From assembly GCA_020160975.1 (NCBI GenBank), contig JAIUPJ010000001.1, forward strand, positions 840,001 through 872,000: a DNA stretch of 32,000 bases, given 5' to 3'. The position numbers and the translations under genes were made by a program. This DNA is from Candidatus Saccharimonadota bacterium (GTDB lineage: Bacteria > Patescibacteriota > Saccharimonadia > Saccharimonadales > Saccharimonadaceae). Of the stretch, positions 1 through 32,000 are shown piece by piece. Every line of letters starts with the position of its first letter. The stretch's first letter is position 1. The notes beneath the pieces were generated by a model that did no database searches, was not told the origin of the DNA, and saw only the letters and a program-made list of their open reading frames with translations.

Positions 1-380
1 TCAAAGATATTGTTGTACCGCTGCGCAAGCTAGTGCTAGTCGATAAGACAGCGCTGCTCTCGGATATCGAGGATGCTTCACGCGCGACAAACTTTTCTCG
101 GTTTCCTGTTTCGGGAGAGTCGGGCGAGTTGCTCGGGTATGTCCATATCAAAGACATTCTGATGGATAGCACTGTGTCAAATCAAAAACCATTACCTATA
201 CGAGATATCAGGCCACTTGGGTTGGTCAAAGAATCAATCACGTTGATGCAAGCATTGAGCGAGATGAGAAAGAGCGAGAGCCACATGTTGCAGGTGACGA
301 GAAATAGCAAGACGATTGGTGTCATCATGCTCGAAGATGTGCTCGAAGAGTTGGTCGGTCCGATCACTCGTTCACTCTAG
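1..380 (+). CDS. CBS-domain pair protein, C-terminal part (5' end lies outside the window)
   Basis: The frame is open from nt 3 with no upstream stop (KDIVVPLRKLVLVDK...) and ends at TAG 378-380. SRFPVSGESGELLGYVHIKDIL and IGVIMLEDVLEELVG match the tandem CBS pattern of DUF21/CorC-HlyC type proteins. Confidence 0.7.
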   Translation, partial: KDIVVPLRKLVLVDKTALLSDIEDASRATNFSRFPVSGESGELLGYVHIKDILMDSTVSNQKPLPIRDIRPLGLVKESITLMQALSEMRKSESHMLQVTRNSKTIGVIMLEDVLEELVGPITRSL

Positions 381-463: not shown

Positions 464-539
464 GCGGGTATAGCTCAGTTGTTAGAGCGCGTCCTTGCCA
501 AGGACGAGGCCAGGGGTTAGAGTCCCCTTACCCGCACCA
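464..539 (+). tRNA. tRNA-Gly (anticodon GCC), CCA encoded
   Basis: The cloverleaf folds by eye. Acceptor GCGGGTA/TACCCGC, D stem GCTC/GAGC, anticodon stem CGTCC/GGACG with loop TTGCCAA, T stem AGGGG/CCCCT, A73, CCA; 76 nt. Confidence 0.93.
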
Positions 540-10634: not shown

Positions 10635-11185
10635 TCTGGCGCTCCTATTTTTCCATGAATAAACTTGTAGCTACTGGCGGCCTCTTTTGAAAATGTACGC
10701 GTTGATACGACATTGAGTGTCGGCGCGTTCATCTCTGATATTGTCCAGTCGCCAGTTAGTTCGTTGACGCTAATAACGTATGCCACATGCCCCCAATCAC
10801 CGCTATCAGTCTGAAAGACAGCACCGACAGCAGGAGTATGATTTACAAGATAGCCGTCGGCCTCGGCGCGGTCGTCCCATGTGTTTGCGTTACCCCATGT
10901 GGTCGGTATCGGACTGCCAGCCCATTTACGCATAGCGTATGACCACCATGTACAGTTACCCCACGCATAAGTATTGTCTGGCATGGGTGCGCCCATATAA
11001 AAGCCGCGTGTTTCGGCAGATTTAGCGTCTGGCGTATTTGCCAGCCAGCTAAGAGTTGGCGTGCCAAGCGACATTATAGCCACAACTGGCAACGATATGA
11101 TGATAGTTACCACTATCAACACCAGCGCGAGTATGCGCTTTGGCTTAAAGCCGCCGACGCTAAACACTACAACCGCTGGATTCAC
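10583..11185 (-). CDS. Membrane-anchored CHAP-domain peptidoglycan hydrolase (T4SS-associated)
   Basis: An N-terminal TM segment is followed by the catalytic Cys context GNCTWWSYAMRKW and His context WGHVAYV. Confidence 0.8.
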   Translation of the reverse strand: MNPAVVVFSVGGFKPKRILALVLIVVTIIISLPVVAIMSLGTPTLSWLANTPDAKSAETRGFYMGAPMPDNTYAWGNCTWWSYAMRKWAGSPIPTTWGNANTWDDRAEADGYLVNHTPAVGAVFQTDSGDWGHVAYVISVNELTGDWTISEMNAPTLNVVSTRTFSKEAASSYKFIHGKIGAPEWTPTPLLPIPPYNSGL

Positions 11186-12963
11186 GAGGCGTACAACTCC
11201 GCAGGGTTAGTCGTGATGAGTGGGTGTTCTTTGTCGCTGGCAACAACTTTTACTGCTACGTGGTTTTGGTCGGCGATCAGTAGCGCGTCGCCGCGTTCAC
11301 ACGTTAGCAAAAAGCTCTGTTCGTATTCGCTTAGATTAAACTCGCTTACCACACCCTTGATAGTTGTAGTATCTTGGCGCATGAGAATACGTAAAGCCGA
11401 CTGCGACGCAATAGCACGGCCATAGTCGCTTTTCAGAAAGTCGCGTGCTTGTTGCGAGATGATTGACACGCCGAGATAGTATTTTCGGGCGCGGCGTACC
11501 AATCCAGCGACAAAGCGTGCCGATTCTTCGTGTTCAAGCAGTAGCCAGCCCTCGTCAATGATGAGTAACCGTTTTTCTGGCTTGGCCATGACCTGATTTT
11601 TTACAAAGTTTGAGATAATCAACATCATTATTTTGCGTAGGCTCTCTGGCAAGTCTTTGATGTCAAAAACAACTAGCCGATTATCGAGCTTGATATTTGT
11701 TTGTGAGTTAAACACTTCGGCAAGCGAGCCAGAGATATATCGTTCTAGCCGTTCGCATAGTTTCATCTGGCCGAGGTCTTTGAGTTCAACATACAAGTCT
11801 TCGAGGAGTGGTTGTTGTTTCTTGGCTTTTTTGTAGATTTTGAGTATGGCTTTATCGACTGCCGCTTTTTCGCGCGAGTTTAGCCCCTCTGCCATAAGGC
11901 CAATGACTTCTGTAAGGTCTTGGGTATGCTCCGACAGGTCGCTAATTTTGTGAAATGTCGTTGCAAGGTCAAAGGGGTTTATCTTTTGCTTGCTCTTGGC
12001 CGATACTTTGATGTATGTACCGCCGACAGATTTTGTCAGTCGCTCATATTCACGTTCTGGGTCAATGACGATAACTTTTGTGCCTTGCATAAGCTGGCGT
12101 AGTATCTCGACTTTGGTTGTGTAGCTTTTACCAGCGCCAGAGCTTGCAAACGTGATTGAGTTTGCATTGTGCAAGCTAAAGCGATCAAGAATAACCAGCG
12201 AGTTATTTGATTTGTTTACGCCATACAATATGCCAGTTTCTTGCACTAGCTCGGACGACATAAACGGAAAAGTAAGCGCCGCGCTGGAACTGTCGAGGTT
12301 GCGTTTTTGTGCCAGTTGGTCTTCGCCGCGAGGTAGGATTGACTGCAAAGCCTCAAGTTGTTGGTAGCGTGCCACTTTGGAGTAAAACAGCCGTGCCGAC
12401 ATAGTAGCCTCAAGCAGTTTTGTGATTTTGTTTAGCTCCTCTAAAGTTTCGGCGCGAATACTGACATAGATTGCCATTTGAAACAGTTTTTCTTGGCCAC
12501 GCTGGATTTTATCGCGTAGCTCGATAGCCGATTCTAAGGGGTCGGTAATTTCAGAACCGACAATTTTACCAGCCCTCATCATAGCCCTCTTGGTACTCTC
12601 TAGCTCGGTAATTTTGCGGTGCAGTTTTGGTAAGGCTGACATGGCGCTGACTTCGTGTACGTGATAGCTTATGTCGGTATCGTGGTTAAAGTTAATCAGA
12701 CTATCAAGCCAGCCAGAGTTTGCCACAAATGGGTAGCCAGAGATGTACAAGGTACGCATGTACACGCCGTCGATACACAAATGGTCGATATTTTCTTCTA
12801 GCCCAGAGTATGACAATACGTCGATAGCGTCTTGTTCGCCAAACGTGATATTGAGTTCTTGTTGTCGCTCTATACGCGCCTGTCGTCGCTTGCGAGCAGG
12901 GGCGGCGATTGGCTCTATGAGTTTACGCCTTACGTTTTCGAGCTTTTTTAGCTGTGTTTTCAT
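11182..12963 (-). CDS. virB4: VirB4-family T4SS ATPase, C-terminal ATPase portion
   Basis: Walker A FASSGAGKSYTTK, Walker B RLLIIDEGWLLL, and ISQQARDF. At 593 aa it lacks the usual N-terminal domain. Confidence 0.88.
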   Translation of the reverse strand: MKTQLKKLENVRRKLIEPIAAPARKRRQARIERQQELNITFGEQDAIDVLSYSGLEENIDHLCIDGVYMRTLYISGYPFVANSGWLDSLINFNHDTDISYHVHEVSAMSALPKLHRKITELESTKRAMMRAGKIVGSEITDPLESAIELRDKIQRGQEKLFQMAIYVSIRAETLEELNKITKLLEATMSARLFYSKVARYQQLEALQSILPRGEDQLAQKRNLDSSSAALTFPFMSSELVQETGILYGVNKSNNSLVILDRFSLHNANSITFASSGAGKSYTTKVEILRQLMQGTKVIVIDPEREYERLTKSVGGTYIKVSAKSKQKINPFDLATTFHKISDLSEHTQDLTEVIGLMAEGLNSREKAAVDKAILKIYKKAKKQQPLLEDLYVELKDLGQMKLCERLERYISGSLAEVFNSQTNIKLDNRLVVFDIKDLPESLRKIMMLIISNFVKNQVMAKPEKRLLIIDEGWLLLEHEESARFVAGLVRRARKYYLGVSIISQQARDFLKSDYGRAIASQSALRILMRQDTTTIKGVVSEFNLSEYEQSFLLTCERGDALLIADQNHVAVKVVASDKEHPLITTNPAELYAS

Positions 12964-13600
12964 CTGCTGTTCCTTTCTGCTCGCTCTTGACGAGGGCGGT
13001 ATGAATTATCTGCAAAGCCTGTTCGGTGAGTGGCTGTATTTTGGCTTGCGTCGGACTGTAAAAGCTATAAAACAGGTCTAGCACTTCGAGGCTGTCGAGT
13101 TGATCGGCGTGCATACCGAGCCGCCCCATACCTTTGTTGATAATGTCGAGCTTGATTTTTATTTGCTCCGAGATGAGGTCAAAATCTGCCTTGCCAGATT
13201 GTCGGTACGGCACGACGATATAGAAATGACGCGTTAAAATCTTGTTGTTGCTAATGAGCGAGCGTATAAACTCGTCGTAGTTTTGTAGCTGCGTGCGGTA
13301 GATCGGCACAGTTTCACTATCTAGCCGTTCGCGTAGGTCTTCGAGGTATTTGTCCATATCTATCTCGCGCGTCCGTATCAGGATTTGCAAGCTCGTACCG
13401 ACAGAGTTTAGAAAACTCTCGTAGGTTTCAATGATAGCGTCTTGTTCTTCTTCGCTGCGTAGTTCAAAGTTAAGCGACGATACTTGCAAGATTGCGCGGT
13501 ACTCATTGTTTGGCAACATCAAGATACCGTCGCGCACGCCACGTATGGCAATTTGATGACGCGAGCTAGTTTTACTTTTCGATTTCTGTAAGGCGAACAT
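12923..13600 (-). CDS. VirB4 N-terminal domain encoded as a separate ORF
   Basis: Start ATG 13600 follows AAAGGAAA. IRGVRDGILMLPNNEYRAILQVSSLNFELRSEEEQDAIIETYESFLN matches the N-terminal region of Gram-positive VirB4/TrsE/Orf16-type proteins. It overlaps the ATPase ORF by 41 nt in a different frame. Confidence 0.65.
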   Translation of the reverse strand: MFALQKSKSKTSSRHQIAIRGVRDGILMLPNNEYRAILQVSSLNFELRSEEEQDAIIETYESFLNSVGTSLQILIRTREIDMDKYLEDLRERLDSETVPIYRTQLQNYDEFIRSLISNNKILTRHFYIVVPYRQSGKADFDLISEQIKIKLDIINKGMGRLGMHADQLDSLEVLDLFYSFYSPTQAKIQPLTEQALQIIHTALVKSEQKGTADENTAKKARKRKA

Positions 13601-14078
13601 GCAGATTTCCTTTCTTTCCAGTTTCAAAACGGACTTTTGCCGCAGGGTTTTCTATGGTGGCAAGAACTCTGGCGGTAGCTGGTATGTCGAGCTGTGGTCG
13701 GGCGGTGTGTCTTTGCGTTTTTGTGGTGGTGGCCTTTTCTGGTTCTTCTTTTTTAGTTGGGTAGGTTTCGCGTAGGCTCTCGGTGTTTTTGTTGTAGAGA
13801 TAGTATTTTGGTCGCAAATTGTAGCGTAGGATTGTTACCAGCCAAAAGGCCAATATCTTGCCCTTGATACGAATAGCCAAAACACCAAAGAACATAAAGA
13901 CAGCGCCGATGATAACGTACTTATAGATCGCGCTACCCATGAACGGCGGCACAAGGGCAAAAACACCAGCACTGACAAAAATCGGTATCACGAGCAGGAG
14001 TATTTGCGAAAAGCCAAGACTACCGATGATACGGTCTTCAACAGTTGTAACTTGTGCTGGTACGACGGTCATTTTCAT
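13572..14078 (-). CDS. PrgI/VirB3-like small T4SS membrane protein
   Basis: VPAQVTTVEDRIIGSLGFSQILLL is followed by two TM helices, in the position between the VirB6-like and VirB4 genes. Confidence 0.55.
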   Translation of the reverse strand: MKMTVVPAQVTTVEDRIIGSLGFSQILLLVIPIFVSAGVFALVPPFMGSAIYKYVIIGAVFMFFGVLAIRIKGKILAFWLVTILRYNLRPKYYLYNKNTESLRETYPTKKEEPEKATTTKTQRHTARPQLDIPATARVLATIENPAAKVRFETGKKGNLHVRLTEIEK

Positions 14079-15520
14079 GCGGCTTTGTCCTCGTCGCTAC
14101 TCTTGCGCGTTACCTTTGGCCTCGGTGCGCTTTTTGGTATCGCGGTATGTGTAATCTCGGCCGTGCCTTTCTTGTTTTCAAAACTGACACTTTGTATCTT
14201 GCCAGTCCGAACGGCCTTTGATTCAACGCCCCTCATCATGCGCGTCTTCTTTGCGGTATCAGTCTTTGAGCTGATAGCACTTGAGGCAGCGCGGCCTTTG
14301 CCAGTCATGTAACTTACACCGTTTATAAACTGGCTGCCGAGTTTTTTGATGTTGCGCGACCCCATACTGACATAGCTAAATTGCATCATCGTACCTTGTG
14401 CCCTGAGCAGCATAAGTACCGTTGCGATACCTGTTACCATAGCCATGAGCGTATCGGGCATAGCATTGTCGCCAGAGGCCGTCGCCATACCAGCAAACAG
14501 CGAGGCGGCAAGCTGGAGTATCACGACATGCACGAACAATACAAAGATTGTCGTAATGTAGGTCTTAAATGCAGTTTCGGCAAAATCACGAAAGCCCGGA
14601 ATTAGCCAGACGAGCGCAACCAGCGGCGATAGCACCGCGCCAATATACAGCGTTACTAGACGCATGACGTAGTACACCACCAGCACAATCGAGCAAATCA
14701 CAAAGGCCAGCATGATAAACAGCGCCGCAATACCGAGGCCTGACGTTTCCTCGACAACTTTCATCAGCGTTTCCCAGACGGACGTAGTACCAGACACGAG
14801 GCCAACGGCTTTAATGAGCGCGTTCGATAGCGCGATAATGCCGTCAATCAAGAATATCGACGTATTCATTAGCACGAATATCAGCGCCAGCCGAGGTAGC
14901 AAGTGCTTAAACTCTATCTCATCAAATCCAAACGTGGACGCACTCATAACATGAAAACCAATCAGCACCACGACCAGAATAAACAGCACATCGGCAATAC
15001 CCACCATAGCCAGCCAGAAGTTGAAGACGCTTTGATTGCTTGCCATAGTCGGCGTTGCTTTGGTGAAGAAGTCAAGCGCCGAGAGGAACGGCGTAGCCAC
15101 TCCGTTGATAACTTTGACGAGCAAGCCAGTGATCGCCTTGATTATCATGTCAAGCAAACCGTTGCTGTCGTCCTTTGATTCTATGGCCTCAAGACTTGGC
15201 ATAGTAGCGCTGCTTGGGTCATGTGGCGTACCGTAAGAGTTCGTTAGAATTGTCGTGAGGGTTACGGCGGCCAGCACAATCACAAGGCCTAGCACCGCCT
15301 TTTTTAGCACCTCTTTGGCATGTTCCATTTGCTCTGGCTTGCCGCTGCTTGTGATGTAGAGGTAGCCAGCGTTTGCGATAAAAAACACACAGGCCACACT
15401 TGCAAGACCAGCCAGCAGTTGCACCACTGGCATGACATATTCGCGCATGGCCGTGATAGCCGATGAAGTGTCGCCAAAGATTGTTAGCCCTGACAGTAGG
15501 GCGTTCTCAAGACCCCACAT
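14075..15520 (-). CDS. VirB6/TrbL-like polytopic T4SS membrane protein with an N-terminal pilin-like module
   Basis: 481 aa with many hydrophobic helices. Its N-terminus is paralogous to the upstream pilin-like protein (GYLYITSSGKPEQMEHAKEVL vs GFTYITSSGNPEQLDKAKRTL). Confidence 0.65.
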   Translation of the reverse strand: MWGLENALLSGLTIFGDTSSAITAMREYVMPVVQLLAGLASVACVFFIANAGYLYITSSGKPEQMEHAKEVLKKAVLGLVIVLAAVTLTTILTNSYGTPHDPSSATMPSLEAIESKDDSNGLLDMIIKAITGLLVKVINGVATPFLSALDFFTKATPTMASNQSVFNFWLAMVGIADVLFILVVVLIGFHVMSASTFGFDEIEFKHLLPRLALIFVLMNTSIFLIDGIIALSNALIKAVGLVSGTTSVWETLMKVVEETSGLGIAALFIMLAFVICSIVLVVYYVMRLVTLYIGAVLSPLVALVWLIPGFRDFAETAFKTYITTIFVLFVHVVILQLAASLFAGMATASGDNAMPDTLMAMVTGIATVLMLLRAQGTMMQFSYVSMGSRNIKKLGSQFINGVSYMTGKGRAASSAISSKTDTAKKTRMMRGVESKAVRTGKIQSVSFENKKGTAEITHTAIPKSAPRPKVTRKSSDEDKAA

Positions 15521-16699: not shown

Positions 16700-17059
16700 C
16701 TAACGTGAGCGTCTAGCGTAAGACCTGCGAGCGCGTTGCATATCCGTTTCACGCTCTTTAGCCCAAGTGTTCATAGTTTCACAAAATTGAAGTAGCTCTA
16801 ATCCGAGAGGCGTTAGCTTGTATTCTACTTGTGGCGGCACAGCGGGGTAAACAAGGCGATCGAGCATGCCGTTACGCTCCAGCTTTCGCAGAGTTAAAGT
16901 GAGCGCTCTTTGAGTAATAGAAGATAACGCTTTTTCAATCTCGCTAAAACGTAAAGTATTCCCTTGTAAAATGCAAACAACGGGTATAGTCCACTTGCCA
17001 GAAATGACATTAGATGTAGATACCATGGAAGCGTTATTGTTGGTTATCGGCTTAGTCAT
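16700..17059 (-). CDS. HxlR-family winged-helix transcriptional regulator
   Basis: RFSEIEKALSSITQRALTLTLRKLERNGMLDRLVYPAVPPQVEYKLTPLG is present. Start ATG 17059 overlaps the MFS stop codon (CATGACTAA), consistent with translational coupling. Confidence 0.8.
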   Translation of the reverse strand: MTKPITNNNASMVSTSNVISGKWTIPVVCILQGNTLRFSEIEKALSSITQRALTLTLRKLERNGMLDRLVYPAVPPQVEYKLTPLGLELLQFCETMNTWAKERETDMQRARRSYARRSR

Positions 17060-18608
17060 GACGCTGGCTGGTGATATCAAGTCCTTTTGGAATAAGCGCG
17101 AACACGATGATTGCTATGGTCACTAAAATAATGCCGCCAACTAAGCCTATCCCTAAGATGGAATCATCAAATGCGCTTGTCGCTTTGGTAGCGAGGTCGA
17201 AAACGCCAGTCTGTGCAGACACAGCTAACGCATCTACGATGGACTTATTCGCTTGATCGGCGAGCGCGCCACTGATACCCTGTCCGGCAAATGAAGCGAT
17301 ATCGAGATATTGCCTGTAGAACGCCGCTGCAATACTTCCAATCACTGCCACTCCAAATACATTACCAAGGTCGTACATCGATTCCTCTATAGCGGCAGAA
17401 TTACCAGCTTTGTCTTGCGGGGTGCTTGACATAATGAGTGATGACGCAACTGCTAAGGATGCTGTACTAATACCAATTAATACAAGCGCAGGGACTAACA
17501 CGCCGTAGGTAAGCGGATGTCCAAACAGGAAAATATACAAAAAGCCAATACCCGCCATAGCTAAACCACTCGCAAGTACTGTTCGCGCGCCAATTCGTGC
17601 GGCTATTGCTGGTGCCAATGGCGTAAAAAGTAGCGCACCCACCGCAGTTGGCAATGTTGCTATGCCCGCTTTGAGCGGCGACCACTCAAGTACGACCTGA
17701 AGCCACTGAGCAATCAATAACATTATGCCCGTCATCGCAAACATTGAGAAGAATGCTGTTATCGCGCCAGCGGCAATTGGGCGGCGCTTAAAGAGGCGAA
17801 CATCGAGCATTGGTTTTGCCTGACGAAGACAGCGCACTACAAAACCGATGAGGAGCAGCGCAGAAATCGCAAATACTATCAGCGCAGTCGTATCATCCCA
17901 ACCTTCTTTTGCAAAATGTTTAATACTCCACACCAACGTGGACATACCACCAATAGAAAGTATCGTTGCTAGCATGTCCCAGCGCGGAGGTTGAGTGCTG
18001 CGAGCTTCGGGCAGTAAGAATAAACCGGCAATCACCGCGAACAGTGCGAATGGTGCGTTTATAATGAACACTGAATGCCACGAGAAATGCTCAAGTAATA
18101 GACCGCCCCCCACGGGGCCAGCAATTGCACCGAGACTGGCGATTGAAGCCCATATCGCAAGTGCGGTTGCCCGCTCTTTAGGGTTGCTAAATATAGTTCG
18201 TATCATAGAAAGCGTTGTTGGCATGATCATCGCGCCAGCCAATCCGAGTAGTGCGCGCAGTGCGATCACATGATTGGCGGTTGTTACGAATAGCACTAGC
18301 ACTGAGGCAACGCTAAATATGAAAAAGCCAGTCAACAGTAACTTTTTGCGTCCCCAGCGATCGGCCAGTGCGCTCATTGGGATAAGCAGCCCGGCCAGTA
18401 TGAGCGAATAGACGTCAACGATCCATAACTGTTGTGCCGTCGTCGGACTAAGGTCGATAATCAATTTTGGGAGCGCCATGAGCAAAATCATCATATCCAT
18501 CGTGACGACAAATAAACTCAACGACAGCACGCCAAGCGCAGTCCAGCGCTTAGCTGGTGACATTGTGTCGGCAGACATCGAAAATAGTGCTTGTAACAGT
18601 TTTTTCAT
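17052..18608 (-). CDS. MFS transporter, 14-TMS drug:H+ antiporter (EmrB/QacA-like)
   Basis: 518 aa and highly hydrophobic. LADRWGRKKLLL matches the MFS motif A. It lies next to a TetR regulator gene. Confidence 0.85.
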   Translation of the reverse strand: MKKLLQALFSMSADTMSPAKRWTALGVLSLSLFVVTMDMMILLMALPKLIIDLSPTTAQQLWIVDVYSLILAGLLIPMSALADRWGRKKLLLTGFFIFSVASVLVLFVTTANHVIALRALLGLAGAMIMPTTLSMIRTIFSNPKERATALAIWASIASLGAIAGPVGGGLLLEHFSWHSVFIINAPFALFAVIAGLFLLPEARSTQPPRWDMLATILSIGGMSTLVWSIKHFAKEGWDDTTALIVFAISALLLIGFVVRCLRQAKPMLDVRLFKRRPIAAGAITAFFSMFAMTGIMLLIAQWLQVVLEWSPLKAGIATLPTAVGALLFTPLAPAIAARIGARTVLASGLAMAGIGFLYIFLFGHPLTYGVLVPALVLIGISTASLAVASSLIMSSTPQDKAGNSAAIEESMYDLGNVFGVAVIGSIAAAFYRQYLDIASFAGQGISGALADQANKSIVDALAVSAQTGVFDLATKATSAFDDSILGIGLVGGIILVTIAIIVFALIPKGLDITSQRHD

Positions 18609-19168
18609 GATTCTTTCCCTCCAGACTTCATGAGATTAGCAAATATATTTGTCATCATCGCCTCGCTAAATGGCTCGTTGTGTAGGATGGTATATACCAA
18701 CGCACCGTCACTAAATACAGCAATAGCTTGTGCCGCTTCCTTGTCGGTGTGCTTTGACAAGACCGCCACGAGACCATCAAACCAGCGCGTTGCCAACGGG
18801 CGGAGCGAGGGGTCATCTGTACTAGCGACAAAAAACGCGACATCGGCATGTATTCTGACTGTATCTTGTAGGTATTCATAAAGTAGTTGAGCTAGTTTTG
18901 CAGGGCTACTGTTACGGGCAAGTTCCACATCTATTTCCTGTAAGATATCGTCGAGCATATCAGCGAGATAAGTCAGTGCTTGAGCTTTGAGGTCATCGAG
19001 CGAACTAAAATGTTGCGTAGTTGAGCCAAGCGGTACTTTTGCTTTAGCGGCAATCTCGCGATGCGTCAGATTATTGACGCCATTTTCAATAATGAGGTCA
19101 GCAGTCGCCTTGATAATACTATGTTTACGCGCAGCCGATTTTTTCTCAAACTTTGTTATATTAGTCAT
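18605..19168 (-). CDS. TetR/AcrR-family transcriptional regulator
   Basis: The HTH is NNLTHREIAAKAKVPLGSTTQHFSSLDDL. ATG 19168 is preferred over the TTG at 19177 used by the ORF track. Confidence 0.85.
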   Translation of the reverse strand: MTNITKFEKKSAARKHSIIKATADLIIENGVNNLTHREIAAKAKVPLGSTTQHFSSLDDLKAQALTYLADMLDDILQEIDVELARNSSPAKLAQLLYEYLQDTVRIHADVAFFVASTDDPSLRPLATRWFDGLVAVLSKHTDKEAAQAIAVFSDGALVYTILHNEPFSEAMMTNIFANLMKSGGKES

Positions 19169-19188
19169 TATGTACAAATGTACATAAT
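19167..19188. promoter_or_regulatory. Putative TetR operator (perfect palindrome)
   Basis: ATTATGTACA-AA-TGTACATAAT has 10-bp arms and overlaps the TetR start codon. Confidence 0.5.
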
Positions 19189-19807: not shown

Positions 19808-20608
19808 TTACAAGCCTATACGTGCTGGCTCTTGCTCCTCGTCTATTTTCTGCCATAGCTTGCTAGTAGTGGTGGCTTTTTGTAGCTGCTCCTGTGTAAT
19901 GGTAGCAAAGGCTATATCTTCTGTATCGTCGAGGGCGTAGCGTATCTGCTTATTGAGTTTCTTTTGGGTTGGTTCGTCTTGGCAAATGCAAAGAATTGTC
20001 GGCAGATCGCCAGCGTCTTCTGGCCAGTCGCCGTCTGCTGCGTAGTTGATATAGTTGCGGACTTTGCGAACGCCGACGAAGAACGGTTTTGTATCGTCGA
20101 GTACATCAAGGAAGTAGCGGCGGCGGTTTGCGCCAGCTTTTAAGTTGAGGAATAGGTCGGGTGTCCACGACGGGAAGTAGTCATAGGCGGCCATATGGCT
20201 TTTGGTAAATATGCCGAGCTTGTCGCTATATATGGCTTGTAATGTGAGGACGGTATCGGCCACGTTTAGACAATGCGTAATAAAGTCGGGCGATACGGTT
20301 TTGTTTTTGTAGAGGGCTTTTATAGCCCACTCGTTTGTATTATCTGCTGGTAATTGTCGTGCGCCTTTTGGTGTCAAAAAGTATTCTGCTGGTCGCCCTG
20401 CGAGCTTGTATGACTTGTCGTAATGCTTACCAATAAAGCCGCGTTCTTCGAGTATTTGTAGCTTGTTTTGTGTAGTCTTCTGGTTCGGTTTAAGTAAGTG
20501 TTTAGCTATTTGTTTACTACTACTGAAACGTACTTTATACAGCCAGTCTAATACTGCTACTTGTTCGGGGTTTAAGGGTCTTCTATACTTTGGTTCTGCT
20601 GCTGTCAT
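19808..20608 (-). CDS. Replication-relaxation (Replic_Relax)-family protein
   Basis: 266 aa. The N-terminal winged-helix-like LNPEQVAVLDWLYKVRFSSSKQIAKHL pattern is typical of this plasmid/ICE family. Assigned from memory of the family, not a search. Confidence 0.5.
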   Translation of the reverse strand: MTAAEPKYRRPLNPEQVAVLDWLYKVRFSSSKQIAKHLLKPNQKTTQNKLQILEERGFIGKHYDKSYKLAGRPAEYFLTPKGARQLPADNTNEWAIKALYKNKTVSPDFITHCLNVADTVLTLQAIYSDKLGIFTKSHMAAYDYFPSWTPDLFLNLKAGANRRRYFLDVLDDTKPFFVGVRKVRNYINYAADGDWPEDAGDLPTILCICQDEPTQKKLNKQIRYALDDTEDIAFATITQEQLQKATTTSKLWQKIDEEQEPARIGL

Positions 20609-20681: not shown

Positions 20682-21721
20682 GGGTAATTATAGGTTGGGT
20701 ATCGGTAACTAAGTTTTAAGAACGCTTGTTAGTAAGGCTTTTGTACATCAGGCGCTTGCCGTTGATGTTATCAAACCAAGCCTCAAAACGCTCGCCGTCA
20801 GTCATGCCGCGTGTGTTCCAACGGAACGTGTACTCGTCGCAGTAGAGCTGCAAATGCTTTGCGCTTACGTGGTGGTAAATGCCGTCAATACCGCGCTTTA
20901 GGTGCGACCAAAAACTTTCTGCTGTGTTCGTACTAGCCATGCCGTTTACAAACTCTTTTGCGCCGTGATTAACGCTTGCGTGCTTGAAACCGATTTTAGG
21001 TAGGGTGCGATACGGCATGTGTTCGTCTGTGTAGATCGTAGCGTCAATGTCGATGTTCTTACGAGCTAGGGTCATAAGCGTGTTGCTGCCTGTGTCTTTA
21101 GTTGCGACTGCACGGAGCTTGCCGCCACGTTCAACCATACCGACAACTGGCGTTTTGCTATTCTTGCTGCCGTGTCCTTGAGCGCCTTTACCAGTTAGTT
21201 GCTTTAGTCGTTTGTGATAGTGCTTGTTGCTGTCCTTGCCGCCTATATACGCCTCGTCCATTTCAACCTCGCCAGTTAGCTTTTCAAAGCTGCCAGTTTC
21301 AAATACGTGGCGTATGCGCTGGAGCATAAACCATGCAGTTGCTTGACGTACCTTTATGAACTTAGAGAGCTGGATTGAAGATACGCCCTTTTTGATACTT
21401 GTACATAGATAGATTGCTAGTAGCCATTTACGCAGAGGTATTTTGCTGTCTTCAAAGATACTGCCGACACGGACGGTGAATTGCTGCCGACATGAGGCAC
21501 ATTTGAATAGCTTGCCAGCGTTTTTACCGCTCGTGTACTTATACGCCTTGCCGATAACGCCACATTGAGGGCAAGTTATCTCGTCTGGCCAACGACGCTC
21601 TTGTATGAAATCCCGACAAGACTGCTCGTCAGGGAATCTGTCTAGTAGTTCGATGAGGTTCATATCTTCCATACTTCCATTGTACACCTCTGTTGTGGGT
21701 GTGTCAAGCGTATAATTGCCT
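20682..21721. mobile_element. IS1595-family insertion sequence (ISXO2-like), approximate ends
   Basis: Imperfect terminal inverted repeats: GGGTAATTATAGGTTGGG (left) vs the reverse complement AGGCAATTATACGCTTGA (right). AAAAT flanks both ends (20677-20681 and 22-26 after 21700, i.e. 21722-21726). A single transposase gene lies inside. Confidence 0.5.
20716..21672 (-). CDS. IS1595-family transposase
   Basis: Start MEDMNLIELLDRFPDEQSCRDF. It has an N-terminal zinc ribbon (CPQCG...CASCRQQFT) and an ISXO2-like DDE region (EVEMDEAYIGGK...YTDEH...NTAESFWSHLKR). Confidence 0.88.
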   Translation of the reverse strand: MEDMNLIELLDRFPDEQSCRDFIQERRWPDEITCPQCGVIGKAYKYTSGKNAGKLFKCASCRQQFTVRVGSIFEDSKIPLRKWLLAIYLCTSIKKGVSSIQLSKFIKVRQATAWFMLQRIRHVFETGSFEKLTGEVEMDEAYIGGKDSNKHYHKRLKQLTGKGAQGHGSKNSKTPVVGMVERGGKLRAVATKDTGSNTLMTLARKNIDIDATIYTDEHMPYRTLPKIGFKHASVNHGAKEFVNGMASTNTAESFWSHLKRGIDGIYHHVSAKHLQLYCDEYTFRWNTRGMTDGERFEAWFDNINGKRLMYKSLTNKRS

Positions 21722-21968
21722 AAAATTATTACACACCTTATATAATGCGGCGGCCATTCGAGCGGGCCGTCCCCGACCCGACCCGCCGGGCCAATCACAT
21801 TCTTGCTCAAAATCGGTACGACTTAGTTGTATAAATCCACCATGCGATCATTCTTAGACGCACCGGCATCTTTTTTTGATTGGCTTGCACGTTGATGAAA
21901 GTGCTTATTTGTGGGGTGTAAACATAGTTTCTGGGTCGAGATAAACCCCAGAAGGAAATAGAACCTGT

Positions 21969-22750: not shown

Positions 22751-23314
22751 ATGAAAACAGCAATTACTCTTCACGGCACATTTGGTTCGCCACACGGGAA
22801 CTGGTTTCAGTGGCTAAAGAATGAGCTTGAAGAAAAAGGTTTCGCTGTGTGGTTGCCACAATTGCCCCACGCCGAACAACCCAGTCTTAGAAAATGGCAA
22901 CTATTTGTAAAAGAAAAATGTCCATTTCCTATCAACGAACAGACACTTATTGTCGGACATTCTAGCGGCGCAATACTAGCGCTAGTATTAGCAGAGAATA
23001 ATATGGAAAAGATTGGAGCAATAGTTGATGTGTCGGTCTTCCACGATAACTCATTGCAGTGGCAACCAAATGACAAACTCTTTGATGTTCAATTTAACTG
23101 GACCGCTATCCGGGAGGGTGTGAAAGAGCTGCTATTTATTCATTCGGACAATGACCCTTATGTGCCGCTTAATCAAGCACAGTTCGTATCAACAAATACA
23201 GGTGCTGAGATGATAGTTGTTCCCGGCGAAGGTCATTTCAACTTAGAACGAAGCGATGAGTATAAGCAATTCCATAAACTACTAGAGATATTAGAGGATA
23301 GAAAGCTGGTTTAA
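22751..23314 (+). CDS. RBBP9/YdeN-family alpha/beta serine hydrolase
   Basis: 187 aa with LHGTFGSPHGNWF, the nucleophile elbow GHSSG, and SDNDPYVP...GHF. Confidence 0.75.
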   Translation: MKTAITLHGTFGSPHGNWFQWLKNELEEKGFAVWLPQLPHAEQPSLRKWQLFVKEKCPFPINEQTLIVGHSSGAILALVLAENNMEKIGAIVDVSVFHDNSLQWQPNDKLFDVQFNWTAIREGVKELLFIHSDNDPYVPLNQAQFVSTNTGAEMIVVPGEGHFNLERSDEYKQFHKLLEILEDRKLV

Positions 23315-23315
23315 A

Positions 23316-23642
23316 ATGAGTACCTACAAGATTGTTGTAACTGTTCCCGAAAATGAAGCCGATAAACTTCGCGAGGCTATTGGTAATGTCGGAGGCGGTA
23401 AAGTCGGCAATTACTCTCATTGCAGCTTTTCAGTAAAAGGCACTGGACGATTTTTGCCCGTTGATGGTGCTAATCCTGCTATTGGGCAGGTTGGTCAGCT
23501 TGAAGAAGTCGCAGAAGAGCAGATTGAAATTACCTGTGATAGCGAAAGTGTTAAAGCAGTTTTAGTTGCAATTCGTGAAGCACATTCGTACGAAGAGCCT
23601 GCTATAGATGTGTACGAATTAGCGGAATTATCTGATGTCTGA
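23316..23642 (+). CDS. PII-like small protein (COG3323 / NIF3-insert-like domain)
   Basis: KIVVTVPENEADKLREAIGNVGGGKVGNYSHCSF...GRFLPVDGANPAIGQVG...AHSYEEPAIDVYEL matches this family as I remember it. Confidence 0.6.
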   Translation: MSTYKIVVTVPENEADKLREAIGNVGGGKVGNYSHCSFSVKGTGRFLPVDGANPAIGQVGQLEEVAEEQIEITCDSESVKAVLVAIREAHSYEEPAIDVYELAELSDV

Positions 23643-24591
23643 ACTTCAAACACCAGCGGACCGACTAAATTACACAGGTGACCTTACGCCAGTCATTGAG
23701 CGTGTCTGTGAAACTTATGGCGTTGGTCAGTTGAGCGCAAGTAGTATCGTTGAAGTCGGTTATGAGGATTGTAATGTCGTCATAGAAACCGACCAAGCAA
23801 AGTTTGTCGCCAAGATGTTTGCTAAGACACGAACACCAGTAGACATTACTCGCTATGCCACCACAATGGAGAAGGTCGTACAGGCGGGGGTACATCACCC
23901 AGAACTATTAACAACTGATACTGGCGAAACGACATATAGCGATAGTGGCGTTACGCTCGTTTTAATGCGATTTGTTGAAGGTAAGAGTTTCTTGGAGCTA
24001 GACCGCTCCCCGTCAGACGAAGAGCGTAAAGCCGTACTGGAACAGGCAGCTACGGTAAACAGTATTGATTATGAACCACCCTATCTATTTGATAGCTGGG
24101 CTATTCCAAACATTCACGCGATGCTTGAAAAGGTAGAGCAGTATATTGCGCCAGAAGACCTACCATTAGTTGAGCAAGCGATTGCAGGCTATGATGCTAT
24201 CCCTACAGACGACCTGCCACACTGTTTTGTACACGGCGACTTCACCAAAGCTAATGTCATTAAAGGCGAAGATGGCAAAATATATATTCTAGACTTTTCG
24301 GTTGCTAATCGTTATCCACGGATACAAGAGCTGGCAGTAATTGTTGCCAACCTACTGCACGATGACGGCGAAGAAACGCTAGAGCAGAAATGCAAGCGAG
24401 TAGCAGATGAATACAGTGAATTTAATCCATTGAATGACCAGGAGCGCAAGCATCTACCTGCCTACGCACTGGCTGGCATAGCTATGGAATTTATGGGCGC
24501 ACATCAAGAGAAGTATATAAACGGCAACGACACAGAGGAGACCGACTATTGGCTCAGCCTGGGGCGTGAGGGCTTGCGCAAGGCTCAGTAG
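23635..24591 (+). CDS. APH-family phosphotransferase (aminoglycoside/homoserine-kinase-II-like)
   Basis: Catalytic loop CFVHGDFTKANVI and metal-binding YILDFS are present. The start overlaps the upstream stop (ATGTCTGA). Confidence 0.75.
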   Translation: MSELQTPADRLNYTGDLTPVIERVCETYGVGQLSASSIVEVGYEDCNVVIETDQAKFVAKMFAKTRTPVDITRYATTMEKVVQAGVHHPELLTTDTGETTYSDSGVTLVLMRFVEGKSFLELDRSPSDEERKAVLEQAATVNSIDYEPPYLFDSWAIPNIHAMLEKVEQYIAPEDLPLVEQAIAGYDAIPTDDLPHCFVHGDFTKANVIKGEDGKIYILDFSVANRYPRIQELAVIVANLLHDDGEETLEQKCKRVADEYSEFNPLNDQERKHLPAYALAGIAMEFMGAHQEKYINGNDTEETDYWLSLGREGLRKAQ

Positions 24592-26250
24592 ATAACAAGC
24601 TCCCTGCTTTTAAGTGAAGCTGGGATGCGCGGTGCGCTTGATAGACTACCGTCAACCAACGCTCCAAAAAGTTTAAGTAAATTCTGTAGCTCCGCACCAA
24701 TTCGGAACTGAAACGGAAATTGTCGCCCTCTGGGGCGATTTTTTCGCTTGCGGCGCGTAGCGCCTGCCAGCGGTTTTTCAGGGGGGAGGTTAGAAATTGG
24801 TCGTCATTTATGACGACTTCTTTTTGTCGCATTTTGAGGTTCGACCCGAAGATTTCGAGTAATAGCGACTTTTTGGCTCGTAAATCATCACTCTTGGCGA
24901 CTTTACAGATAGAAACGGCAGTTTCTATCCATGTTTTCATCGGTTCGACCCAGGTCGAAACGCCCAGCGTTGCCTGCTCGATTTGTTCATGCAAAAGTTT
25001 CTTTTTGCCCAATATCTCCGCTCGTTTGTCTTGGTATAGTTCACGCTCTACGTCGCCGTCTAAGTAGCCGTCGAGTAGACGCGCCAGCTTGTCGGACAAC
25101 TGCGCGATAGCTTCTTTATCGTTTCCAGTAATACACTCAAAGTCGGCTTTTTCACTCATCTCGTCGTTACGTATCAGCTCGCGCAGTTTGTCCGCCCATG
25201 CCGTAGGCATGGCATACTTCTGTAATAATGCAGATAGTTGTTTGTCCAGCTCCTCAGCTCTGATGTGCGGCTCTCGACAGACAACCGTCTTACTCTTGCG
25301 AGTGCAGCGGTAATACACATAAGTATGTATGTTGCCGTTCTTTTGCCGCTTTACATGCTTTTCTGCGGTATACATCATGCCGCATGAACAATACACCAAG
25401 CCGCATAGCGGCATTGGGTCATTTGTTTTTGGGTGCGGCTTACCACGCCGCTCTAAAACAACTTGCACTTGGTCAAATAAGCGCTTCGAGATAATGCCTT
25501 TATGCTTGCCCTCATGGACTTCGCCAAGATAGCAAAAATGCCCATAATAAAAGGGATTAGCCAGCATGCGTTTGATACGATTTTTATGATATGGCTTTTT
25601 ACCTGTCGTCTTTTTGCCGTTTACTTTGCCGCTGCGCGTTTGTATGCCTTTGGCATGTAGGAAATCAGCGATCTCATCGAGTCGTTGATCGCCTTTGGCA
25701 TATAACTCAAAAACTTCGCGCACAATTGGGGCAGTTTTCTTGTCTACTTTGGCTGTTTTGGTGCGCAGATCGTTATAATAACCGACTGGCGCAACGCCTG
25801 GCATTTCGCCACGCCGCACTTTCTGCCGTAGTCCACGCTTAGTGTTTACCGACAAATTATCGACATACTGTTTAGATGAATTAAACTCATTTGCCAACAT
25901 ATACTTGCCTTGTGGTGTATTTTCAAACCAAAAATGTGGGAACTTCAAATCAAGCAATACATGCTAATCGAGCATGTAAATAATCTGTCCACTATCTATA
26001 CTATTGCGCGAGAGTCTGTCGGGTAGCCATGCCAGTATTCCGTTTGCCTCACCAGTCGCAATATCAGCCAGCATCTTGTTGAACTTTTTGCGCCCTGGCT
26101 TTTTCGCCGTTTGTTTTTCTACAATTATGCCCGCGATACGCAAGCCCGTACGCCCGGAAAACTCCTTTAGCTCAATTATCTGCGCCGCCACAGATAATAT
26201 TTGCTTGTCCTCTACATCGGTGGCTCGTATATCCTCGGTGATGCTATACT
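24554..26250 (-). pseudogene. Decayed large serine recombinase (paralog of 517-2076)
   Basis: It is colinear with recombinase 1 along its length. There is an in-frame TAG where recombinase 1 has Gln (YMLD*HVLLDLKFP vs YLLDQTHLANLKFP, about 25961-25963). The catalytic YTRKST is replaced by ITEDIRAT, and there is no start codon. Confidence 0.85.
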
Positions 26251-29646: not shown

Positions 29647-32000
29647 ATGAAACGATATAATCCATCTGAAATCGAGCCGAAATGGCAGCAAATCTGGGAC
29701 AACGAGCAGGTCTACAGGGCTGACCTCATGTCGGACAAGCAAAAATACATCGCCATGAGTATGTTCAACTACCCGAGCGGAGCTGGGATTCATATTGGCC
29801 ATGCGATGAATTACACCATCTCTGATGTGATGGCGCGCTACAAGCGCCAAAACGGCTATGAGAGCTACCACCCTGTTGGCTGGGATGCTTTTGGACTGCC
29901 AGCAGAAAACTTTGCTATCAAAAGTGGCGTCTCGCCACAGGCAAGCATGGCCAAAATTATTCCAAGCTACCACAAACAGTACAAAGCCATGGGCTGGAGT
30001 AACGATTGGAGCAAGGAAGTTTCGACGCACTTGCCGATCTATTACAAATGGACACAGTGGATTTTCTCAGAGATGTACCGTGCAGGACTTGCCTACCAAG
30101 AACCACGCATGCAATGGTGGTGCACCAAGTGCCAAACGGTGCTCGCGAATGAGCAAGTAATCGACGGTAAATGTTGGCGCCACGACGCTCCTGATGACCC
30201 GGAAGTCGCCAAAAAAGAAGTCAAACAGTGGTTTTTCAAAGTGACAGAATATGCCGATGAGATGCTCGAAGCCACCGATGCGCTCGACTGGAGCGAGGTA
30301 GTAAAGGCTGCCCAGAAGAACTGGATAGGCAAGAGTGAGGGTGCGGAGGTACAGTTTGAAGTTCTGAGCTCTACTTTCTTAGAGAAAAAGGAGTCTAAAG
30401 ATTCGCTGAAGTTTACCCCAGAGCTGACCAAAATGATCATCGACGGTAGCAAGACGTCCACTATTCGTCTTGAGCCAAAAAATGTAAACGTCGGGGACAC
30501 AGTGGAGCTACTGACGCGCGATGGGGAAAGCGTTGACGCATTTGGATATGCGAAAATTACAAATATTCGCGCCATGAAGCTTGTTGATATTCCTAATGAC
30601 CTGGCAGGTCACGAGCCGCTTAAAGATGATGCAGATAAACTGGCGCGATACCGTGGATATTATACGGACAACGTAACGCTTGAGACTGAATTTACCATTT
30701 ACGACTTTGATAACTTAGAACTCAGATCTCAGAACGTAGAGCTCGATCCCATCACTGTCTTTACCACTCGTCCCGATACCATTTTTGGCGCGACGTTTTT
30801 GGTGCTGGCGCCGGAGCACGAGTTGGTCAAACAAATTGTGACAGATGATGCGCGTGATGTCGTAGAGCAATATGTCAAGGATTCACTGAAAAAGTCAGAA
30901 CTCGAGCGTCAAGAGACTAAAGAAAAGACCGGTGTGCCGACAGGCGCGCATGCCATCAATCCCGCAACGGGCGAGAAAATCCCTATCTGGGTGGCTGACT
31001 ATGTATTGGGTGGCTATGGCACTGGGGCTATCATGGCGGTGCCGGCACACGACGAGCGAGACCGGGAATTTGCGGAGAAGTTTGATTTGCCAGTAGTGCA
31101 AGTTGTGGCCGAAACGCTGCTTGATCAAGAAAATCCGCCTCGTGACGACAAGAAAAATACTCGGCGCAACGTAGCGATGTGCATTATCGACCATCCAACC
31201 GATGGGACGTTTTTGACGCTCAAATGGCATAAGCAACCATGGCATAATTTCGTGATGGGTGGCATCGAAGAAGGCGAGTCGCTCGAGGCCGCCGCGCGCC
31301 GAGAAATCACCGAAGAAACCGGCTATGTCGACATGTCGTTTGTCGAAAGTATGCCAGTCCCCCTCAATAGTAAGTTTTACGCAGCGCATAAAGACGTCAA
31401 CCGCGACATTATCACGCATGTCGTCCGGTTCAAACTCAATAGTCTCGATACGGTTGCGACTGCACGCGAGGAGCATGAGGATTTCGAGCCAATGTGGGTA
31501 GAGAAGTCAGCACTTTCTCAGTTGCAACCAGTCGCCGAGCTCGGGCATATTCTTCGTTGGCTCGACGGTGAAACACCGATTTATCATGGAGAAGGCGTAC
31601 TGGTAAATTCCGGCAAATTCGATGGTATGAGTAGTAGCGAGGCGCGCGAACAGATCGTGGCGTGGCTCGAGCAGCAAGGTGTCGGCAAAGCCAAAATAAC
31701 GTATAAAATCCGAGACTGGAGTGTCAGCCGCCAGCGCTATTGGGGCGCGCCGATTCCGGTCGTTCACTGCGACAAGGATGGTATCGTACTGGTGCCCGAT
31801 GACCTATTGCCAGTGATTTTGCCGGAGCTCGAAGATTTTGCCCCGAGCGGTGATGGTCGCAGCGCCCTGGCGCGCGCGACAGAGTGGCTCAACACGACCT
31901 GCCCAACATGTGGTGGCCCGTCAACCCGCGAGACCGATACGCTCGACACCTACATTTGTAGTAGTTGGTATTTCCTCAGGTATTTCGATGGTGCCAATGA
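29647..32000 (+). CDS. leuS: Leucyl-tRNA synthetase, N-terminal 784 codons (continues beyond the window), with two inserted domains
   Basis: This ORF is not in the ORF track because it has no stop in the window. I translated 29647-32000 codon by codon and found no stop. Motifs seen: YPSGAGIHIGHAMNY (HIGH), GWDAFGLPAEN, TTRPDTIFGATF, AVPAHDERDREFA, RDWSVSRQRYWGAPIP. Confidence 0.92.
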   Translation, partial: MKRYNPSEIEPKWQQIWDNEQVYRADLMSDKQKYIAMSMFNYPSGAGIHIGHAMNYTISDVMARYKRQNGYESYHPVGWDAFGLPAENFAIKSGVSPQASMAKIIPSYHKQYKAMGWSNDWSKEVSTHLPIYYKWTQWIFSEMYRAGLAYQEPRMQWWCTKCQTVLANEQVIDGKCWRHDAPDDPEVAKKEVKQWFFKVTEYADEMLEATDALDWSEVVKAAQKNWIGKSEGAEVQFEVLSSTFLEKKESKDSLKFTPELTKMIIDGSKTSTIRLEPKNVNVGDTVELLTRDGESVDAFGYAKITNIRAMKLVDIPNDLAGHEPLKDDADKLARYRGYYTDNVTLETEFTIYDFDNLELRSQNVELDPITVFTTRPDTIFGATFLVLAPEHELVKQIVTDDARDVVEQYVKDSLKKSELERQETKEKTGVPTGAHAINPATGEKIPIWVADYVLGGYGTGAIMAVPAHDERDREFAEKFDLPVVQVVAETLLDQENPPRDDKKNTRRNVAMCIIDHPTDGTFLTLKWHKQPWHNFVMGGIEEGESLEAAARREITEETGYVDMSFVESMPVPLNSKFYAAHKDVNRDIITHVVRFKLNSLDTVATAREEHEDFEPMWVEKSALSQLQPVAELGHILRWLDGETPIYHGEGVLVNSGKFDGMSSSEAREQIVAWLEQQGVGKAKITYKIRDWSVSRQRYWGAPIPVVHCDKDGIVLVPDDLLPVILPELEDFAPSGDGRSALARATEWLNTTCPTCGGPSTRETDTLDTYICSSWYFLRYFDGAN

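Follow-up and report, generated by a model that had tools for sequence, protein, structure and literature searches.

An ASCH-family domain nested in the CP1 editing domain of a Saccharibacteria leucyl-tRNA synthetase

The 32,000-nt stretch of DNA analysed here (positions 840,001 to 872,000 of contig JAIUPJ010000001.1, assembly GCA_020160975.1, from a Candidatus Saccharimonadota bacterium; hereafter the window) ends within leuS, the gene for leucyl-tRNA synthetase (LeuRS). The CP1 editing domain of this LeuRS contains an in-frame insertion that is almost certainly an ASCH fold, and by alignment this insertion has kept the catalytic residues of the Escherichia coli amidohydrolase YqfB. The explanation favoured overall, to which we assign a probability of about one half, is that the insert would be an N4-acylcytidine deacylase tethered to LeuRS and acting on tRNA. 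Searches of the literature found no description of an ASCH or NUDIX domain inside the CP1 of LeuRS, and an enzyme domain nested there, at a socket that accepts other domains too, is apparently an undescribed architecture.

Position, fold and family of the insertion

The relatives used for comparison are the 120 proteins most similar to the window product in a collection of 5.8 billion sequences, which were aligned. Between the left anchor NWIGKSEGAEVQF and the peptide ITVFTTRPDT (Table 1), the window LeuRS has 131 residues, as against the 8-10 found in the 64 insert-free proteins among these relatives, where the interval is occupied by a short turn of the type x[VIL][DE]G[SHR]D. The corresponding interval of Thermus thermophilus LeuRS (1h3n) is 6 residues long (237-242). 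The net gain is ~123 aa, close to the ~125 aa estimated in a first-pass annotation of the sequence, whose coordinates for the insert (30361-30745) are correct to within a few bases of those measured here (30358-30750) and whose quoted peptide is present in the translation. That annotation had placed the insertion at the entrance to the CP1 domain; it does lie in CP1, but within the domain, where it occupies the tip of the first beta-hairpin (T. thermophilus 236/243), directly ahead of the threonine-rich editing peptide. This hairpin is different from the structure termed the "CP1 hairpin" in PMC4138327, which is the Zn-binding neck before CP1. There is no compositional break, with a GC content of 0.46-0.50 in the insert and 0.49-0.54 in its flanks.

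The assignment of the insert to the ASCH family, first proposed from the sequence alone, is borne out by both profile and structure searches. The Pfam ASCH family (PF04266) matches the window segment alone with 26.4 bits (gathering cutoff 21.2, E 1e-5) and matches 32 of 32 aligned homologous segments, with a best E of 7.7e-16. A profile built from the inserts finds YqfB end to end among PDB sequences (1te7, E 4e-4; 9kyf, E 1e-3). An AlphaFold2 model of the insert, made from the insert alignment, has a mean predicted local distance difference test score (pLDDT) of 93.4 and a predicted TM-score of 0.84, and when it was compared with the PDB by Foldseek the top 20 matches were all ASCH structures, each with a probability of 1.00. 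YqfB is the best of these by target-normalised TM-score (0.77-0.78, with a root-mean-square deviation of 2.6-2.8 Å over 104 columns). The insert shares with YqfB (1te7, 9kyf-9kyh) its fold, its GxKxxTxR octapeptide, counterparts of E74 and Y89, and a similar size (~105 aa) and acidity; it differs in being only ~20% identical and in having conserved motifs of its own (DSLKFTP, GHE and YxxYYG). The inserted domain adds a new member to the ASCH family, in its GKTR group.

Table 1. Features of the window, with those of leuS first and those of the upstream region below (positions are in nt from the start of the window; residues are those of the leuS product).
Feature	Position	Residues	Strand	Basis or remark
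leuS, 5' part, bacterial-type leucyl-tRNA synthetase	29647..32000	784 codons	+	translation, TIGR00396, HIGH; continues past window end
HIGH motif	29791-29802	49-52	+	motif location
Left anchor NWIGKSEGAEVQF	30319..30357	225-237	+	beta-strand linker into CP1 and first strand of CP1 hairpin; aligns to T. thermophilus LeuRS up to residue 236
Whole inserted segment, 131 aa	30358..30750	238-368	+	replaces 8-aa hairpin tip of plain relatives
N-terminal linker EVLSSTFLEKKESKD	30358..30402		+	alignment; length and sequence variable among relatives
ASCH fold proper, SLKF...IYDF	30403..30708	253-354	+	Pfam, AlphaFold2, Foldseek; beta-barrel and two helices
ASCH octapeptide region DGSKTSTIR	30442..30468	266-274	+	alignment to YqfB; GxKxxTxR, "GKTR" YqfB type
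AGHEP	30604..30618		+	alignment to YqfB; contains H322 and E323
RYRGYY	30646..30663		+	alignment to YqfB; contains Y339
C-terminal linker DNLELRSQNVELDP	30709..30750		+	alignment, pLDDT drops at model end; returns to CP1
Right anchor ITVFTTRPDT	30751..30780	369-378	+	second hairpin strand and Thr-rich editing-site peptide; aligns from T. thermophilus residue 243
NUDIX hydrolase domain, second in-frame CP1 insertion, 162 aa	31108..31593	488-649	+	Pfam; 13-14 aa in plain forms
Nudix box GGIEEGESLEAAARREITEETGY	31258-31326	538-560	+	canonical
tRNA-Gly(GCC)	464-539
Serine recombinase	517-2160
VirD4-like	8040-10634
CHAP	10583-11185
VirB4/TraG-like	11182-12963
PrgI	13572-14078
TrbL/pilin	14075-15520
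MFS/TetR pair	17052-19177
Relaxase-like gene	19808-20608
IS1595 transposase	20716-21810
Stand-alone PF06821 serine hydrolase	22751-23314		+	on putative mobile element
APH phosphotransferase	23635-24591
Serine recombinase	24554-25957

Predicted active site

Mutational work on YqfB allows the conserved positions of the insert to be read against a characterised enzyme. In YqfB the base is proposed to be K21, the nucleophile T24, the oxyanion hole R26 and the acid E74; the K21A, T24A and R26A mutants are inactive, the activity of E74A is reduced 100- to 1000-fold, and Y89 is among the residues found to be essential or important by mutagenesis (PMC6972931). In the sequence alignment, K269, T272 and R274 of the window LeuRS fall opposite K21, T24 and R26, and E323 and Y339 correspond to E74 and Y89 by alignment only. 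Among 71 unique inserts, K269, T272, R274 and Y339 are each conserved in 70, H322 in 67 and E323 in 62. Aligned in this way, the insert retains the full predicted catalytic constellation of YqfB, comprising the lysine base, threonine nucleophile, arginine oxyanion hole, glutamate acid and tyrosine. The first-pass annotation had noted that some ASCH domains are N4-acetylcytidine (ac4C) amidohydrolases, a hint that these conserved residues strengthen at the level of sequence, and the insert is probably a catalytically competent amidohydrolase. YqfB itself is a free protein, whereas the insert is nested in the CP1 domain and its activity is a prediction.

The pairwise ratio of nonsynonymous to synonymous substitution rates (dN/dS) is 0.10 for the insert and 0.02-0.03 for the flanking LeuRS, and the insert is under purifying selection, somewhat relaxed. 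Its isoelectric point (pI) of 4.7 and net charge of -6 make it as acidic as YqfB, and for this reason a generic RNA-binding role for the domain is disfavoured.

The host synthetase

The reading frame had been reported as uninterrupted from 29647 to 32000, and it is indeed one open frame on the forward strand, with an ATG start, that runs off the end of the window. Even in its truncated form the product scores 643.7 bits with TIGR00396 (leuS_bact, cutoff 548.4), and Pfam detects the tRNA-synt_1 and LeuRS editing domains in it. A full-length twin of 1080 aa (P0004, 99% identical to the window product) represents a cluster of 29 sequences. The CP1 editing motifs of the window LeuRS are TTRPDT (aa 373-378) and AHDERD (aa 466-471); the KMSKS-like sequence MFSKS lies past the window end and was located only in the full-length twin. 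The HIGH, KMSKS-like, TTRPDT and AHDxxD motifs are preserved in all of the LeuRS architectures compared, and with its synthetic and editing motifs retained the host LeuRS looks fully functional. Loci with the ASCH insert and plain loci have common flanks (HD-domain gene, Mur ligase, leuS, NusB, NUDIX and RNase III); because these are identical in order, the two forms are alleles of one orthologous gene. A Mur ligase gene lies upstream of leuS in the window as well. In this Saccharibacteria (TM7) genome, the window gene is the only LeuRS locus and the orthologous one.

The leucine-specific domain is missing from these Saccharibacteria LeuRS proteins, in which ~57 residues (T. thermophilus 580-636) are replaced by ~4 (P0004 aa 846-851). 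This is reminiscent of the LeuRS of Mycoplasma mobile, and the C-terminal tRNA-binding domain is present. Database pipelines already tag the Pfam domains in these LeuRS proteins and sometimes misname the protein, with some being named merely "NUDIX domain-containing protein" by NCBI; such misleading names are an annotation problem.

A second insertion in CP1

The first-pass annotation recognised the ASCH insertion but overlooked another, a NUDIX hydrolase domain inserted in frame 360 nt further downstream in CP1 (Table 1). The Pfam family PF00293 matches this segment with 56.3 bits (cutoff 21.1), and its Nudix box agrees with the pattern Gx5Ex7REUxEExGU. The insertion takes the place of a loop in the C-terminal portion of CP1 that is equivalent to T. 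thermophilus 364-376. Its best match among PDB sequences is the diadenosine tetraphosphate (Ap4A) hydrolase 1f3y, at an E of only 3e-4. Of the 120 nearest LeuRS proteins, 84 have the NUDIX insert, which, like the ASCH insert, has been repeatedly gained or lost.

Two possible sources of the NUDIX insert were rejected. The stand-alone NUDIX gene downstream of leuS (in the order NusB-NUDIX-RNase III) aligns with the insert in the Nudix box only (41% identity over 49 aa), and its origin from that gene is further excluded by the persistence of the stand-alone gene alongside a leuS that carries the insert. The NUDIX proteins encoded next to free-standing ASCH genes were likewise rejected as the closest relatives of the LeuRS NUDIX domain, as their scores do not exceed 45 bits, compared with 38 for a control.

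Distribution and turnover of the insert

The insert-specific peptide D[ST]LKFTPxL[TA] was found in 43 species-representative genomes, and the insert is thus present in at least 43. Almost all of these are labelled Saccharibacteria, Saccharimonadales or TM7, and they include a single-cell genome of a human oral TM7. An ASCH domain is also found at the identical point in P0130, a divergent LeuRS that is not Saccharibacteria-like and has a different Zn-module region. Within the set of 120 nearest LeuRS proteins, 38 carry the ASCH insert, half of them together with NUDIX (19) and half without it (19); 48 have NUDIX only and 16 have neither. In the remainder the ASCH site is occupied by something else: a 15-42-aa low-complexity loop in 14, a PF06821 serine hydrolase in one (P0029, a 191-aa domain), and in three (P0085, P0095 and P0106) an unrelated domain of ~130 aa, here called X. 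The X insert has the pattern YRSYxMGQ...FPA...FEQLIxDKMEPGFWNEY...VFIFK; it has no Pfam match, and its AlphaFold2 model (pLDDT 79) yielded no fold match in the PDB with an E below 1e-3. The low-complexity hairpin extensions of P0047, P0075, P0091 and P0015 share a motif of the type "ETASR...AADVS", whether or not an ASCH domain lies behind it. Either independent expansion or the loss of cassettes that left linkers behind may account for these extensions.

On a neighbour-joining tree of 783 core columns and 119 tips, the observed states require at least 18 changes for ASCH and at least 15 for NUDIX. In three pairs (P0012/P0057, P0023/P0115 and P0014/P0071), one member has the ASCH insert and the other does not while their cores are 95-98% identical, which marks the insert as an accessory module. 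The identity between inserts scarcely follows that between cores (Spearman 0.20); for example, inserts that are 93% identical sit on cores that are 84% identical. Along leuS, P0012 and P0057 (loci L044 and L045) share 99-100% DNA identity at the two ends of the gene, but the identity falls to 78-88% in the region surrounding the insert and within a second internal block. Such a mosaic indicates an imported recombination tract and allelic recombination between diverged Saccharibacteria leuS genes. The P0023/P0115 pair differs by a clean 345-nt indel, with the genes otherwise ~92% identical.

Free-standing relatives and their gene neighbourhoods

A search of 1.84 billion representative sequences with the ASCH insert profile returned 954 hits. 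Three free-standing forms (P0124, P0125 and P0128) are near-identical to the insert and score 143-160 bits with its profile, while the general family of free proteins of ~110 aa reaches at most 101 bits with the same motif set. The free proteins of the candidate phyla radiation (CPR)/Patescibacteria type (alignment A3; P0129, P0131 and P0133) share with the insert the K..T.R, VGD, GHE and YYG motifs and their length; the consensus of the free family reads TWRLFDDK where that of the LeuRS insert reads TIRLExK. The LeuRS insert derives from this CPR-wide family of free-standing ASCH proteins. Unlike the nested insert, the free proteins are encoded by separate genes, often in operon-like arrangements with NUDIX, arginyl-tRNA synthetase (ArgRS), Tag, MGMT-like or Ham1 genes.

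Neighbouring genes were counted at 77 usable metagenome loci of the free family. The commonest immediate neighbour is NUDIX (6 upstream and 10 downstream, with gaps of mostly 4-15 bp), and others include SecA (6), Tag glycosylase and an MGMT-type domain (4 each) and Ham1 (2); HIT, TsaE, B3/4, a YbaK-type tRNA_edit domain and a serine hydrolase occur in single cases. ArgRS accounts for 4 of the 54 scorable upstream neighbours. The gene for P0129 is located 5 bp downstream of that for ArgRS in three contigs (for example L049, 2293-3996 and 4001-4345), and P0153, a fusion of a Mur ligase and an ASCH domain, is encoded directly upstream of argS (L054, 173-1852 and 1845-3377). A strict enrichment of NUDIX genes adjacent to free ASCH genes was considered and dropped, the NUDIX profile matching 15 of the 119 open reading frames (ORFs) next to these and 18 of the 235 others in the vicinity. 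Adjacency is not separately enriched, and the claim is therefore limited to a neighbourhood association, without a genome-wide background.

The gene for P0128, the free protein most like the insert, overlaps the downstream gene for a GNAT acetyltransferase by 4 bp (L048, 108-452 and 449-991), a single example. The two would make a deacylase/acetyltransferase pair in a layout like that of toxin-antitoxin systems.

A possible role of the insert on tRNA

The favoured explanation is that the ASCH insert would be a working N4-acylcytidine amidohydrolase whose tether to LeuRS supplies a tRNA-binding platform absent from the ASCH domain itself. The domain would take N4-acetyl or other N4-acyl groups off cytidines in LeuRS-bound tRNA, above all tRNA-Leu, and may act together with the NUDIX hydrolase inserted 120 residues downstream. 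The tethering would be analogous to that provided by the helix-turn-helix (HTH) domains of archaeal ASCH tRNA deacetylases. ASCH was an orphan family for ~20 years, and its members have recently been proposed, on the basis of over-expression, to be "erasers" of ac4C in tRNA: all 19 of 19 ASCH proteins expressed in E. coli lowered the ac4C of tRNA, and the lysine and the threonine or glutamate of the octapeptide were essential (bioRxiv 10.64898/2026.02.27.708502). According to the same work, YqfB-type enzymes have no nucleic-acid binding by themselves, and the archaeal ASCH domain alone does not bind tRNA, this being supplied by the fused HTH (bioRxiv 10.64898/2026.02.27.708502). The archaeal ASCH-HTH (AAAD_HTH) tRNA ac4C deacetylases Afu3ASCH and Pku4ASCH thus resemble the LeuRS form in combining a GKTR-type ASCH domain and a tRNA-binding module in one polypeptide. 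They differ in that their partner is a small C-terminal HTH domain, where in LeuRS it is an entire synthetase with ASCH as an internal loop insertion, in a form known from sequence alone. Nested insertions such as CP1 and the leucine-specific domain are characteristic of class Ia synthetases (LeuRS and those for isoleucine, IleRS, and valine, ValRS), which sometimes contain extra enzyme domains, as the window LeuRS does; the NCBIfam entry "ileS_w_GNAT" (NF040702) denotes, going by its family name only, an IleRS with an N-acetyltransferase domain.

The component claims differ in strength. Catalytic competence is judged probable on the residues described above, while the proposal that the physiological substrate is tRNA and not a free nucleoside or nucleotide is tentative, at somewhat below even chances. 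Several observations weigh against a tethered tRNA deacylase. In bacteria, ac4C is known from position C34 of elongator tRNA-Met alone and not from tRNA-Leu. LeuRS proteins that are 95-98% identical occur without the insert, which is thus dispensable, and any role must therefore be conditional. The equivalent of E74 is substituted in 9 of the 71 unique inserts. The NCBIfam equivalog for YqfB (NF003443) gives the insert 14.8 bits against a cutoff of 93, a score so far below the cutoff that the insert belongs to a distinct ASCH subfamily and is no YqfB orthologue. Among the neighbours of the free proteins, Tag, MGMT-like, Ham1 and HIT genes fit the sanitation of nucleotides or DNA at least as well as work on tRNA, and NUDIX is not clearly more frequent next to the free ASCH genes than among the other ORFs nearby.

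Alternative explanations

The main rival, which we regard as unlikely but as the most serious of the alternatives, is that the insert serves salvage or sanitation and merely hitch-hikes on LeuRS. Here ASCH and NUDIX would act on free nucleosides or nucleotides, for instance damaged nucleotides, or ac4C and other N4-acyl-cytidine compounds released by RNA turnover, and not on tRNA-Leu, with LeuRS being no more than a carrier that is stably expressed in a very small genome. Saccharibacteria rely on nucleotide salvage. The location of the free relatives amid NUDIX, Ham1, HIT, Tag and MGMT-like genes fits this explanation, as does the acidity of the insert, which makes RNA binding of its own unlikely, and the ability of LeuRS to manage without it. 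The best-characterised substrate of YqfB is moreover the free ac4C nucleoside (PMC6972931). Salvage leaves unexplained, however, why the domain sits within a loop of CP1, a tRNA-handling domain, instead of being a terminal fusion or a free gene, why it occupies the same site in the divergent LeuRS P0130, and why its relatives are repeatedly found close to ArgRS.

It is more doubtful still that the insert is non-catalytic, a PUA-like binding module or spacer that contacts tRNA-Leu (at the acceptor end or variable arm) or tunes the swing of CP1 between aminoacylation and editing, with the "catalytic" residues kept for ligand binding only. ASCH does belong to the PUA-like superfamily, some members of which bind nucleic acids; the site of insertion adjoins the editing-site peptide, the host LeuRS is without the leucine-specific domain, and E323 is not universal. 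But the plain LeuRS proteins of the clade, which likewise have no leucine-specific domain, work without the insert, the charge and pI are those of the non-binding YqfB enzymes, and the near-invariance of the threonine nucleophile and lysine base goes beyond what binding would need. The occurrence of unrelated domains (the serine hydrolase and X) and of low-complexity loops at the same site also speaks against this reading.

A role in conflict or detoxification is improbable. It would have the swappable hydrolases of CP1 reverse toxin-inflicted acylation of tRNA or aminoacyl-tRNA or, in a variant, inactivate N4-acylcytosine or aminoacyl-nucleotide antibiotics of the actinobacterial hosts. The very rapid gain, loss and exchange of the insert, with its many changes on the tree and the low correlation between insert and core identities, would fit such a role, and the recombination tract around the insert in one pair, the several unrelated hydrolases in one socket and the overlap of the P0128 gene with that of a GNAT protein are consistent with it. 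The GNAT case is single, however, and acetyltransferases are not among the frequent neighbours; no fitting toxin or antibiotic is known, and this reading is wholly inferential.

An artefact, in the form of an assembly chimera, a mis-joined separate gene, an intein or a mobile intervening sequence, can be dismissed with near certainty, in agreement with the first-pass annotation, which had seen neither a separate gene nor an intein: presence and absence among close relatives could superficially hint at mobility, and nothing else of the kind was found, whereas the frame is continuous, the twin P0004 stands for 29 sequences, the same insert recurs at the same site in many independent assemblies, including the 43 species genomes from independent studies, and both the dN/dS of the insert and the unbroken GC content argue against it. 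A Pfam scan of the ORF product found no Hint/intein or homing-endonuclease domains, the junctions (VQF|EVLS and ELDP|ITVF) do not have the residues of an intein (Cys/Ser/Thr on the N side; His-Asn and Cys/Ser/Thr on the C side), and no repeats are visible at the insert junctions in DNA comparisons of allele pairs.

A broader proposal, which goes beyond the tethered deacylase and is unlikely to hold, is that in Saccharibacteria the two CP1 loops are sockets for interchangeable hydrolase cassettes (ASCH, NUDIX, serine hydrolase and the X fold) that recombination shuffles among strains. LeuRS would then be an on-enzyme station for the repair or detoxification of tRNA, at which ASCH would strip N4-acyl adducts, whether physiological ac4C or inflicted by toxins or chemistry, from the cytidines of tRNA-Leu, for example those of the CCA end as it passes the editing site, and the repertoire of cassettes would reflect an arms race between epibiont and host.

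Upstream region of the window

The region from 464 to 25957 resembles an integrative conjugative element beside tRNA-Gly(GCC), with the genes listed in Table 1, of which those labelled VirD4-like, CHAP, VirB4/TraG-like, PrgI and TrbL/pilin belong to type IV secretion. This putative element appears to be unrelated to the ASCH finding, save for its stand-alone serine hydrolase. A direct link between that protein and the domain in the socket of P0029 was considered and rejected, as the two share a Pfam family but have only 24% identity.

Implications

The presence of a catalytically intact-looking ASCH domain inside a tRNA-proofreading domain is independent genomic evidence for work of this family on or next to tRNA, and the LeuRS-ASCH chimera offers a defined, testable enzyme-substrate pair. 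In reduced CPR genomes, an essential synthetase can accommodate whole enzyme domains in two CP1 loops and swap them rapidly. This is relevant to the evolution of synthetases, to the choice of insertion-tolerant sites in LeuRS for engineering, and to the packaging of accessory functions in epibionts of ~1000 genes.

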